A model generated the notes under the pieces. It was not told the DNA's origin. It saw only the letters and a list, made by a program, of their open reading frames with translations, and did not search any database. From Eledone cirrhosa (taxonomy: Eukaryota): 64,000 bases of DNA. Shown here in pieces: positions 35,689 through 44,547 of the stretch (within the stretch, counting starts at the first letter, position 1; each line of letters opens with the position of its first letter). The stretch covers positions 373,426,001 through 373,490,000 of the forward strand of contig OZ024740.1 in assembly GCA_964016885.1 (NCBI GenBank), given 5' to 3'. Position numbers and translations under genes: made by a program.

Positions 35689-36503
35689 TGATTAGTTCTA
35701 TCGTTCCTTTGGTATGTATTGTGTGTTGGTTTCGCCTACCACAATGTTCGATTTGTCTTACTATTTAAACGTATGTTATAACTCAGAACTATCTTATCGA
35801 GTGCTTTGCTAACTCATCACTACATATAAGTAGGCCGCATTTACTTCCAAACCGCCAGAGATTCGATTTTACTGATTTCCAATTATATTAATCTCCTAGA
35901 TTTAATAATTAACCAATTAATTAAATTGGAAAATTCTGTTGATTGGTTAATTATTTGTGTTAATTTTATAACATCTAGTCGAGAACATAAGTTGATTAGC
36001 GGAAATTAAAATACTTCCATTCGCTTGCATTTGAATTGACCCGCCAAAAACCGGGGGTTAATTCCCTTGCCGGAATTAACACGTGATAACTATAGATACG
36101 ATTAGCAGCCATACGAGCGGCAACATATGTTATCCCTCCTGGTTCTAAGCAGAATGAAAACCTGTTGATAAACTGAGCCCTCTGTTCAGTCACCAATACC
36201 ACGATCTTGCCATTCAAGTAAGTCTGATATTTGATTTCGGATTCAGAGAAACACTTTGAACGTATGCAGTTTGATTTGTCCAGGTGTATTTTTCTCAACC
36301 TGATTAATTCTATCGTTCCTTTGGTATGTATTGTGTGTTGGTTTTCTCCTACCACAATGTTCGATTTGTCAAGCTATTTAAACGTATGTTATAACTCTGA
36401 GACCTATCTTATCGAGTGATTTGCTAACTCATCACTTCATATAAACAGGCCGAATTTACTTGCATACCGCCAGAGATTCGATTTTACTGATTTCCAATTA
36501 TAT
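35689..36503 (+). mobile_element. Retrozyme-like unit Rz-D (about 612-nt period, 1.3 units)
   Basis: 35689-35887 is repeated at 36301-36503. Bounded by (TA)n. Confidence 0.75.
36160..36285 (+). ncRNA. Large hammerhead, U3-A8 core, extended stems II and III
   Basis: ACCTG-TTGATAA-a-CTGAGCC[..]GGATTCAG-a-GAA-ACA[TTGAAC/GTTTGA]TGT-C-CAGGT. Confidence 0.7.
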
Positions 36504-36749
36504 ATATATATATATATATACATATATATATATGTACATATGTATATATATATATATATATATTTATATATATATATATATATATATATATATATATATA
36601 TATATATATATATATATATATACATATACATATATATATATATATATGTATATATATATATATATATATATATATATATATATATATATATATATATATA
36701 TATATATATATATATATATATATATGTATATATATATGTGTGTATATAT

Positions 36750-39205
36750 ATATTGTTATACTTGGGGAGGGTCATATTTGTGTAATATTGCCAGAATTAA
36801 TAACAGAACACACTCACTGTCTGGTTGGTTTTCGCTTTTCCTTCTGTGTCTTTTATATCGGTAACCTAATTTACTCGGTCCTCAATGTTGCCATTGATTG
36901 ACCGACGGTCAAAAATAATACAGTTACACTATGGACACAAACACATATATATAGTTTATCATAAATCTTTCGTTGCACATCTGCAACATCGTCAGTGGTG
37001 CTATTATTTCCTCCCGTTGTATTGTATGTTTACGCCATTTTTATTCAGTCTGTCCATATATTTATTTATTTATTTGCTTATTTGTTTATTTTATTTTGTC
37101 TTCTTGGCTCATGCGTTCGCGTCTGTGTATAGTGTTTTGTTTGATTTGTGATGTGTGTTCTTGATTGGATGACTAGTGTGTATTTATGTGCTTGTGTATG
37201 TATGTATTTATTTATTTATTTATTGTATTTTATTTACTTATTTATACGTCTCTTAGGTCATTGTTGTTTGTTTGGGCGTTGTTGTTATTCCATTCATTCT
37301 TTCTGTTTAGTCTTGGTCTTCTAAGTTCTATTTCACTGGCCTCTCTGCTTTGCCTATCTGCTGGGTCATTTCTATCTTTAGATATTATTCTAATTTTCTA
37401 TGTTGTCTATGTTGCCGTCATGTTGTTGTCTAGCATGTTCGTATAGTACTGACCCGTGTTTTCGTCCTTTTAGTTCCCCCCAGTGTTGGTGTATCCTTTC
37501 ACCTATGCTACGAGCTGTGTCACCTGTTGTTGTCATGTTTCTGCAAGTACCCTCTGTACATCTTATGCTATAGACTACATTTCTAGTTTTATAGTTTATC
37601 CGGGGGTTTACCTTACATATGATACATTTCCTATTGTTACAGTGGGTCTTCTTAAAAGGGTGGGTTTTGCTGATCGAGCATTTTATGGTAGGTTCCTGTC
37701 TTTTCTACCACCTTAATTTTTAAGTGGGTTTTTCTCAGGGCCTTTCTACACTGGTTAGCTAATTTCCCTCCAGGGGTAGCGTCCACAAACATGACACTCT
37801 GGTATCTCTGGTTGTCGTAACATGAGGTGGCTTTCCCTAACTTATGTCTAGCCCTATCTAAGCTCTTCTATGATTTGCTCCTGTATAATGGGCAAATTCC
37901 TTTCATGTCCAGTTCTATGAGGGTCTTATACTTCTCCATGGCTCCTTTGTATACTCTGACTGTGTCTCTTTGGTTGTAGCCAGAGAACTGCATGCGGTTA
38001 ATGAAGTGTTGGATGTGTCTTTCCATTTCTGTTGGGTCGCACATGCGGGACACATTCTTCATCACTCGTACTAAATCTGCGATCAGAATATTAAACTTAG
38101 CAGTACTAGACATTGCTGAGTTTTTGCGTATCACGTATTTGGAGGCCATGGGTTTAGCATAGTGTGAGTGGAGAATTTGGGCTCTCTCGTCTATAGCGTT
38201 AATCCAGAGTTCTGTGTCTAATACAGGTAGTCTATTGTTAGGGTGTTTGGAAGGGAAGTCGATAGTTACAGTTATACTCTGGTGTATGGAATTAGCTATC
38301 TGCTGGATGCTTTCCATTGTTCTACGTTCTAAATCAAACGTGTTAGTGCTCTCTAGTGGGGATTTCCTTATAACTATATTGATATCGTCTACATAACGAG
38401 AGTACATGATGAGGTCTATGGAGCTCTCATTAAGGAGATCTTTAAGTCTCCTTTCCCACCATACCATGAAAAGGTTGGCAACATCACCGGCTATGCTGAC
38501 GCCAATGGCTGCTCCCTCATTTTTGGTGTAGATCTTACGTTGAACTTAAATATGAGGCCCTTTAGGGTAGTTTTGATACTAGCCCCTATTGCATGTGCGA
38601 CCATTTTTCTTACCTGATCATTGTTTTGGGGGGTCCGTATAGCTTTGGTCCACCCAATCCACTTTCCCATGGGAGTCCTTTTTGCCATTGAGGTTATGGT
38701 GGAGGTCTACCTCTTATGGGTCTACTAGGGCAGAAACGTCTAAGGTCATGACGGTCTAGGTAGTCAGTGTCGTAGGTAAGTCTAAGTAGGAGGCCCAATT
38801 CGTCTGTGTCAACGTCGCAGAACTCCACCTCACACTCAACGATCAACTCCATACATTTTTCCACAGCAAAATCAATGTTAATGGATGGGTACAATGACAC
38901 CACATCCATGCTGCCTATTATACAGTTGGATAGGTTCCTCTTTTTGCTGAACTCACTGATTCTGCTGAGGAGGTCCTCTGTACTGTCACATACATCTGGG
39001 GACATCTTGATTATGGGGCGTATAACCCATATTGAGAGGAAGTAGGAGATCCTGTAGTTACTAGCTATATTAGCTCCGCATACGGGTCTTGTTGGTGGTC
39101 CTGTTGTCGGGTCGTCGACTGTCTTGTGGACTTTGAGGAGCCCATACAAGGGTGGTATGCCATTGTTAGACGCCTGGAAGTTGTTGGCAGTGCGTCTGCT
39201 TGGCA
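36750..39205 (-). mobile_element. PLE family P3, longest copy (RT palm to pLTR), frameshifted
   Basis: YGLLKVHK..PPTRPVCGAN, IIGSMDVVSLYPSI, YSRYVDDINI, DFPSKHPNNRLPVLD. Hammerhead at 36958-36999. Ends in MTLPKYNNI. Confidence 0.93.
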
Positions 39206-43099: not shown

Positions 43100-43600
43100 T
43101 CGTTTCTGAATTTGTTTAGCAAGATTCTTTATCTGAAATCGTGTGTTGAAACCGATATTGTTATACTTCGGGAGGGTCATGTTGCCAATAAGAAACACAC
43201 GCACCAGTTGCTTTCACTTCAATTTAATTTATTATATATTTATAAATTTACAAATTTATAAATTTCTGGTTCGTTGGTTGGTTCCACAACCAGATAGTTG
43301 TTTATATATATATAGTCATAGTTCTTTCGTCACACACTCTGTGACCTCTTCAGTGACTGGGGATTTCTTTCTTCGTTTCTGTGCCTTTCCTTTCTTCTAT
43401 CCTACGCCAAAATGGAGTGTGTGACGAAAGAACTATGACTATATATATATATAAACAACTATCTGGTTGTGGAACCAACCAACCAACCAGAAATTTATAA
43501 ATTTGTAAATTTATAAATATATAATAAATTAAATTGAAGTGAAAGCAACTGGTGCGTGTGTTTCTTATTGGCAACATGACCCTCCCGAAGTATAACAATA
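43100..43600. mobile_element. Head-to-head inverted pLTRs (family P5)
   Basis: Arms 43155-43339 / 43415-43600, both ending in the ORF start MTLPKYNNI. Confidence 0.85.
43314..43358 (-). ncRNA. Minimal type-I hammerhead, intact
   Basis: AGTCA-CTGAAGA-g-GTCACA-gagtg-TGTGAC-GAAAG-aa-CTA-TGACT. Confidence 0.88.
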
Positions 43601-43734
43601 TATATATATATATATATATATATATATATATATATATATATATATATATATATATATATATATATATATATATATATATATATATATATATACATATATA
43701 TACATAGAAGAAATATATTATATATATATATATA

Positions 43735-44547
43735 TTCATATATATTTTTATTTTTCTGACCCGAATTTTCTTGGTCGTATTTTCGGCTCTGGGAATGATT
43801 GTTTAAGCATCGTCTCAGTGCGTTGGTATTTAAACGTTAGTTATAGCTTTGGTTTAACCAAACTATTGACCACTTTGTCACACATTTCGAAGATTGTGTT
43901 TCGTTATTTCGCGGGCTGAGGTTCCGATTCTCGATAATTTATTTGTATTTATCTCCAGTCTTTAGCTATTGATCAGTTAATTTTATTGATTTTTTAGTTG
44001 TTCCTATTGATTGATGAATAGCTCATGTTAATTTTAACCCGTCTGTTGAGCACTTTAATTCGATATGTGATATTTTGTATTTTTACAATAATATACACTA
44101 CTGGATTCATTCGCCTAATATAGGGGTTCCCTCCCTTGCTAGACACCACGTGGATTTAATAACGGGTTCCCTTGTATATTTGAACTAAACGCCTGCCGAA
44201 AAAGTGGTGGCCTCGTTCACCATCTTACCAAAAGCCGGATATTTTTATGTAAGCTGACGGTCACTGATTTAGGAGCCTCAGAAACCTAAATGCTGGAATT
44301 TACCATCTTTCCAGGGGTCCGGGTAAATTTTTCATTCATATATATTTTTATTTGTCTGACCCGAATTTTCTTGGTCGTATTTTCGGCTGTGCAAATCATT
44401 GTTTAAGCATCGTCTCAGTGTGTTGGTATTTAAACGTTAGTTATAGCTCTGGTTTATCCAAACTATTGAGCACTTTGCCACACATTTCGAAGATTATGTT
44501 TCGTTATTTCGTGGGCCAATGTTCCGATTCTCGATAATTTATTTGTA
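43735..44547 (+). mobile_element. Retrozyme-like unit Rz-E (600-nt period); decayed large hammerhead at 44191-44324
   Basis: 43735-43948 is repeated at 44335-44547. Motif: GCCTG-CCGAAAA..GGAGCCTCA-GAA-ACC[CTGGAA/TTCCAG]GGT-C-CGGGT. Confidence 0.65.

Follow-up and report, generated by a model that had tools for sequence, protein, structure and literature searches.

A 64,000-nt stretch of the Eledone cirrhosa genome (assembly GCA_964016885.1, contig OZ024740.1, positions 373,426,001 to 373,490,000 of the forward strand; hereafter the window) carries two related insertions, D and E, which probably belong to a high-copy superfamily of retrozymes of the type without long terminal repeats (non-LTR retrozymes). 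Their hammerhead ribozyme is predicted to cleave as a monomer, and the enzyme of a Penelope-like element (PLE) would likely copy both the cut and the uncut or re-joined RNA into (TA)n. RNA that has cut itself likely serves in vivo as a template for retrotransposition, because the 5' ends of genomic copies pile up at the predicted cut, and because family D shows fixed 3' ends and two-armed insertions.

Two related families of non-coding repeats

The insertions and their conserved blocks are located in the window as follows:

35690..36499, + strand: family D insertion, 1.32 units with a period of 615, within (TA)n
43735..44546, + strand: family E insertion, 1.35 units with a period of 600, within (TA)n
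5385..5738, - strand: family D copy, 5'-truncated, with a decayed hammerhead at 5603-5728
36063..36085, + strand: TCCCTTGC / CACGTG block of D
44132..44152, + strand: TCCCTTGC / CACGTG block of E
36375..36387, + strand: TATTTAAACGT motif, at whose end lies the minor fixed 3' end of D (+105)

Each window element consists of one unit plus a direct repeat of about 200 nt, with an identity of 92% in D and 93% in E, and is flanked by (TA)n runs. D starts about 20 nt past the equivalent of the cut site and terminates at the fixed 3' end of its family, and E starts 14 nt past the cut-site equivalent. A preliminary description of this DNA had given the unit coordinates and periods correctly to a few bases and had spoken of tandem units; the repetition is real, although each element holds only 1.3 units and is not a long array. 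It had also called the two units only patchily similar, whereas the majority sequences of both families can be aligned end to end (368 of 675 columns, with a score of 204.5 against 49±15 and a maximum of 94.5 in 200 shuffled controls). The ordered motifs that it listed are present in D and E, but CACGTG itself is not invariant, being replaced by CACATG, CCATGT or CACCCG in other families. The preliminary description put forward TCCCTTGC and CACGTG as possible promoter elements.

The host genome (3.0 Gb) is rich in (TA)n and crowded with PLE fragments. Both families are dispersed in it, and 40 scored matches, drawn from 2,472 (D) and 2,982 (E) first-look candidates, were 87-95% identical. The core pattern of the ribozyme gave 2,861 matches genome-wide and its reversed control 78. 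D and E are both members of a superfamily of non-coding repeats of about 580-625 nt inserted in (TA)n, in which family F was first met at locus L109 and families G and H were obtained from core-pattern matches. The units are non-coding, tandem and carry one type I hammerhead each, as expected of a retrozyme. Two cores were found at loci L003, L004, L032, L054, L143 and L168, and copies spanning two cut sites are rare (4/79 in D and 3/64 in E). The unit is predicted to be self-paired, with circular minimum free energy z-scores of -2.6 to -5.0 in six of six monomers.

An H-type subfamily (L149, L156 and L159) shows a TA/TG microsatellite inside the unit, directly after the cut site, and periods of 678-735 nt. 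One unrelated repeat end adjoins the 5' side of two H-type insertions (L156 and L538), which may be chance given its abundance. Thirteen H-family matches that appeared non-tandem proved to be plain truncations.

Structure and covariation of the hammerhead

The predicted ribozyme elements are:

36160..36285, + strand: type I hammerhead of D, predicted cut after 36280; stem I 36160-64/36281-85, core UUGAUAA 36165-71, extra A at 36172 and 36247, stem II 36173-80/36239-46, GAAA 36248-51, GUC 36278-80, pseudoknot 3' strand 36183-87
36152..36156, + strand: predicted pseudoknot 5' strand of D, GAACG in the family, with one change in the window copy
36298..36302, + strand: downstream complement of the stem I 3' strand of D (competing hairpin)
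44182..44324, + strand: hammerhead of E (44191-44324) with pseudoknot strand GAAC (44182-85); core 44196-44202, broken in the window copy, loop GUUC 44215-18, predicted cut after 44319
44359..44363, + strand: downstream complement of the stem I 3' strand of E

This oversized hammerhead, of type I with helix I open, should according to prediction cleave itself in monomeric form. It spans 126 nt in D and 134 nt in E, in agreement with the architecture of 125-135 nt first proposed, and combines a stem II of 8 bp, an insertion of about 60 nt in loop II and a long stem III, which has 3-4 pairs at its base and, distally, a hairpin covarying between E, E2 and F. The family core UUGANAA was found in 32/37 rows of D, 30/36 of E and 20/20 of F, and the AGAAAC box in 33/37 and 32/36 rows. 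UUGANAA corresponds to the published U3-A8 swap of C3-G8, and a paired 3-8, GAAA and UH are all present; the consensus thus has a core of the YUGANRA type, whose lack the preliminary description had named as an argument against a hammerhead. The window copies themselves are damaged: the E core reads CCGAAAA and the copy at 5603-5728 has a broken GAAA box. The perfect stem II CTGAATCC/GGATTCAG reconstructed earlier turned out to combine two subfamilies and is not a typical real copy, since D copies pair CTGAGTCC/GGATTCAG in 12/56 and CTGAATCC/GGATTCAA in 25/56 cases.

Covariation was analysed on a MAFFT alignment of 34 copies, chosen across clusters, with no fitting to structure. In the proposed helices 92.6% of 700 cells pair, compared with 26-51% in slid controls, and 62 cells are double-changed against 15 in shuffles, a test that is inflated by kinship among copies. 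The paired share is 98% in helix I, 92.5% in helix II, 96% in helix III and 84.8% in the pseudoknot. Six of the eight stem II pairs are double-changed, and covariation extends across five families. Each side of stem II has an extra A, which is set by the core pattern and was present in 132-133 of 141 matches in a looser, mis-anchored census.

GUUC at the start of loop II is complementary to GAAC in the flank 5' of stem I, which suggests a docking pseudoknot. Family G shows GUCC at the loop position; GGAC was predicted upstream and then found in 15/16 G records, and GAAC or GAGC together with GUUC is kept in 111/134 non-G records. Support for the pseudoknot therefore amounts to one independent compensatory event (G) and a wobble change in F. 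Furthermore, 129/150 records, compared with 3/170 control windows, contain a sequence complementary to the stem I 3' strand no more than 70 nt downstream, at differing spacings in five families.

Monomeric folding through the long stem III, as proposed in the preliminary description, agrees with the folding predictions: the energy of the hammerhead fold and that of the ensemble differ by 0.6-4.5 kcal/mol in 8/8 of the intact copies tried, with the pseudoknot uncounted. When the downstream segment is included the gap is 3.1-7.5 kcal/mol. The window copies give 5.9 and 12.9. No match to the Rfam hammerhead models was obtained at E<=10; the long insertions fall outside these models. The hammerhead interpretation of the preliminary description is thus supported; to it are added here the pseudoknot, the hairpin that competes with stem I and the footprints of mobilisation described below.

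5' ends of genomic copies pile up at the predicted cut

Copies were taken by their 3' junction, to avoid length bias, and in genome order, giving 90 of the 411 exact D termini and 70 of the 187 E termini; rows showing internal rearrangements or inverted arms were dropped (11 in D and 6 in E), and copies reaching +27 were counted as at risk. Because of kinship among the copies, some of which are segmental duplicates, P values are overstated. The 5' ends are variable, and fall at 0..+27 after the predicted cut in 25/61 D copies and 25/51 E copies, where 6% and 5%, respectively, are expected from the baseline. The 28 nt upstream of the cut hold 1/36 (D) and 2/26 (E) 5' ends, and the highest-scoring other windows reach 4/12 (D) and 8/24 (E). 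The cut itself is the exact start of three D copies and one E copy; a further candidate for an exact end, L217, proved to be an inverted arm and was excluded.

A second pile, at 1.35 units instead of 0.35, was found one unit later in long copies (10/22 in D and 13/23 in E, with 3 and 1 upstream, respectively), and the position-ordered sample gave 0/4 in D and 5/8 in E at this second pass. Both window elements fall in the second pile, and this renewed accumulation of 5' ends explains their 1.3-unit shape. Rearrangements also meet the cut: a 26-nt duplication in 5/90 D copies ends there, and a deletion in one E copy joins -176 to it. The read-through junctions of D are intact in 31/35 cases, the others showing point or small changes. 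Variants private to a locus are common to both tandem segments more often than in cross-locus controls (4 vs 0.3 in D and 18 vs 0.6 in E), which fits a circle or a re-read monomer, but also a young dimeric source.

Loci L225, L300 and L342 show short local duplications at 5' junctions directly after the cut, as from re-annealing of reverse transcriptase (RT) at a template end. In addition, family E shows another 5'-end pile at -192 to -204 from the cut (about 44116-44131; 8/24 at risk), at the GGGGTT..TCCCTTGC block, which is a possible transcription start or hairpin stop.

Penelope-type insertion signature

The superfamily shows a fixed 3' end, 5' truncation, partial tandems and a microsatellite target, as in PLE mobilisation. 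Family D has two fixed 3' ends, at +218 (411 exact termini) and +105 (50 exact termini), with 0 in controls. Of 30 loci with the +105 end, 22 are two-armed in head-to-head arrangement, and 18 have the other arm ending at the main end; among these loci L511/L512 are one locus and L526-529 are probably one duplicated insertion. Arms ending at +105 stop in 0..+27 in 13/27 cases, and 12 of these stops are joined to the inverted arm and not to (TA)n; therefore TA microhomology is not needed. In family E, a search for a second 3' end gave 0 matches, with a pattern that may have missed it by a base, and only 3/156 loci showed two orientations, none of them clearly two-armed.

Two fixed ends and two-armed loci in D would fit the signatures of PLEs. 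Two internal RT starts with priming on both strands are reported for the anole PLE PAc (PMC11167929), and the traits given for PLEs include partial tandems, inverted arms and insertion into (TA)n (PMC8557442).

Proposed mechanism and alternative explanations

In the mechanism that we propose, a genomic copy would be transcribed, and the ribozyme, docked by the pseudoknot between the 5' flank and loop II, would fold co-transcriptionally and cut after GUC; the downstream hairpin would compete for the stem I 3' strand, leaving only part of the sites cut. A PLE RT-endonuclease would nick (TA)n and start internally at +218 and, in D, also at +105 on the other strand. On cut RNA the RT would run off the 5' end and the cDNA would be joined with 0-27 nt lost, giving copies of 0.35 units that mostly lack the ribozyme. 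On uncut, circular or end-bridged RNA it would read through, with a possible stop at the next cut, giving 1.35 units, the form of the window elements. The template for read-through may be part-cut linear multimers, a mixture of closed circles and linear RNA, or a monomer whose nick the RT bridges; a closed circle alone is disfavoured by the second-pass stops. A tentative extension, which we consider possible but rather doubtful, is that the cleaved ribozyme holds the monomer ends together as a nicked circle, at whose nick the RT drops off or jumps precisely, and that the conserved anti-stem-I hairpin tunes cleavage to about half. Insertions would then fall at discrete lengths of 0.35 and 1.35 units, their junctions would be clean and both segments would share variants private to the locus, and cleavage of about half would balance RNA processing against the making of ribozyme-bearing copies.

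Several observations weigh against the retrozyme mechanism. Most ends of the pile lie at +4..+27 and not at 0, the post-cut stretch is AT-rich in E, and the second pass gave 0/4 in the position-ordered sample of D. Stem II is weakened in two successful subfamilies, by a C.A at its base in D (25/56, the largest D subfamily) and by a 2x2 loop in G, and the A on each side of it is not canonical. The two D starts are about 113 nt apart, not 30-40, E shows neither a second fixed end nor a two-arm pattern, and the sampled loci yielded no autonomous partner. Finally, cleavage of PAc was dispensable in vitro, with no reads ending at the cut (PMC11167929).

The main rival, which we regard as unlikely, supposes that on RNA that is uncut or circular the RT stalls at the fold of the ribozyme or at the downstream hairpin, or that joining takes place at sequence resembling TA, and that the piles reflect this; cleavage would then be irrelevant to insertion. 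The position of most ends 4-27 nt past the cut, beyond the 5-bp strand of stem I, speaks for this reading, as do the extent of the D competing hairpin over +0..+22, the TATATA at about +19 in E and the dispensability of cleavage in PAc (PMC11167929). Yet some ends lie exactly at 0 and almost none within stems III or II, which are stronger helices, and the hairpin arm of E, at +39..+43, is outside the pile. Moreover, the pile remains where the junction is to an inverted arm, and rearrangement scars abut the cut.

It is very improbable that an autonomous PLE, so far undiscovered and visible only as truncated ends, has this unit as its pseudo-LTR. Long copies continue back into the end of the unit itself, endonuclease fragments occur in only 12/179 upstream flanks and 0/9 flagged copies run into a PLE open reading frame (ORF), even though a fixed 3' end, 5' truncation and partial tandems are PLE features (PMC8557442) and a Hydra-like coding PLE of the same genome has a hammerhead with a long stem II. 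We give still less credit to the view that the motif is a hammerhead relic without catalytic activity, retained as a fold for protein binding, or that the conservation arises from the antisense ORF. The failure of Rfam to recognise the ribozyme, the unusual extra As and the subfamilies with weakened stem II could be taken as signs of a relic, but the core boxes are fixed and the 3-8 pair is compensated across five families while the helices turn over, and the 5' ends map to the cut. The opposite-strand ORF, which the preliminary description had raised as another possible cause of the conservation, does not account for it: it is open in 1/30 D copies, namely the window's own, has no Pfam match and shows no third-position excess (334/262/262).

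Search for an autonomous partner and other features of the window

Among 30 GIY-YIG and 20 long-ORF loci, small samples of many families, no PLE partner with a sequence link to the units was found, and a small sample of 30 Hydra-like loci likewise showed no sequence link to the D and E units. An RT plus GIY-YIG ORF together with the unit, as an autonomous PLE would have, was not found. The endonuclease fragments of the upstream flanks were of mixed orientations and families, a PLE ORF does not follow in any of the nine copies flagged because a 3' TA run is missing nearby, and L109 and L538, considered as partner links, are only independent insertions. Scars of A-to-G editing were also sought, without excess: A>G vs T>C were 36 vs 71 in D, 32 vs 67 in E and 6 vs 11 in G. 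Pattern matches in metagenomes (118 of about 170 loci) and viruses (18) were attributed to chance, scoring at most 24 bits with model R1, compared with 87-132 bits for the window copies. In a further set of contigs (run X1), only related variants were seen.

The Hydra-like PLE end in the window (20125-21387, + strand; loci L531-L559) is young and abundant and has a CxCX5C linker. It carries a C3-G8 hammerhead at about 21224-21325, with a stem II region of about 85 nt and a minimal stem III, which model R1 does not match; some copies extend past the usual end, which suggests a tail. Two PLE fragments that include RT and, at the C terminus, GIY-YIG, 91% identical, lie at 28721-30650 (+) and 36755-38680 (-), and other ends belonging to their family at 19209-19712, 42628-42690 and 43107-43597. 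Conventional C3-G8 hammerhead-like motifs are found near repeat ends at 51285-51356 (+), which has a sub-threshold match to Rfam HH9 (E 3e-6), 43314-43358 (-), 3413-3467 (-) and 1304-1385 (+). Palindromic, two-armed insertions of other repeat families are located at 22409-23364, 33037-33311, 52576-53231 and 58360-58705.

Comparison with known systems

At the DNA level the superfamily has the features of metazoan non-LTR retrozymes and would work like one. In both, the units are non-coding, arranged head to tail and equipped with a single type I hammerhead; GC is low, the copies number in the thousands and PLEs coexist with them (PMC7229834; 10.64898/2026.07.22.740005). The units here are of 580-625 nt, against 150-450 (PMC7229834) and 51-972 (10.64898/2026.07.22.740005), and the copies are mostly below 1.7 units, not arrays; unlike those retrozymes, they have the U3-A8 core, the loop II insertion of about 60 nt, the long stem III, the pseudoknot and the competing hairpin.

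The U3-A8 variant is described in hammerheads of the Schistosoma PLE Cercyon (PMC4209133), and the hammerheads of Cercyon and other PLE pseudo-LTRs also share the helix II of 7-8 bp, the short helix I and the unpaired base between 9 and 10.1. They are minimal and dimer-dependent, in contrast to the long helix III, second unpaired A before G12, large insertion and pseudoknot found here; a large helix III is described in that source only for fungal and protist PLEs (PMC4209133). Natural U3-A8 covariation is reported to be active in vitro, and docking of stems I and II by a pseudoknot occurs in about 40% of natural hammerheads (PMC3088659); here both are joined with a structured loop II insertion of about 60 nt in an animal mobile repeat. 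Insertions of the Penelope/Poseidon element PAc and other PLEs share the AT-rich or (TA)n targets, 5' truncation, inverted 5' arms and partial tandems (PMC11167929, PMC8557442). Unlike PAc (PMC11167929), the units have no ORF, their starts are about 113 nt apart versus a 30-40-nt tail, and the genomic ends mark the ribozyme cut. U3-A8, pseudoknots and a large helix III are thus already published, each separately; no report of such a combination, or of 5'-end piles at hammerhead cuts, was found in the openly accessible literature, and the supplements of PMC8557442 and PMC4209133 may hold similar motifs.

Significance

The role of hammerheads in PLEs has been called unclear (PMC8557442). Here, about 45% of the reverse-transcription events that reach the predicted cut end less than 28 nt from it; this holds for two families and for two passes in succession. 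With self-cut RNA as the likely template, such pile-ups would provide a DNA-only readout of germ-line ribozyme cleavage, usable for any PLE or retrozyme family. The ribozyme belongs to a class missed by standard models; PLEs reported to lack hammerheads may be explained in this way. Compensation tests are readily available from the natural variants of the ribozyme. If the nicked-circle proposal were true, it would give the PLE-type hammerhead a role in vivo that can be read in the genome itself.

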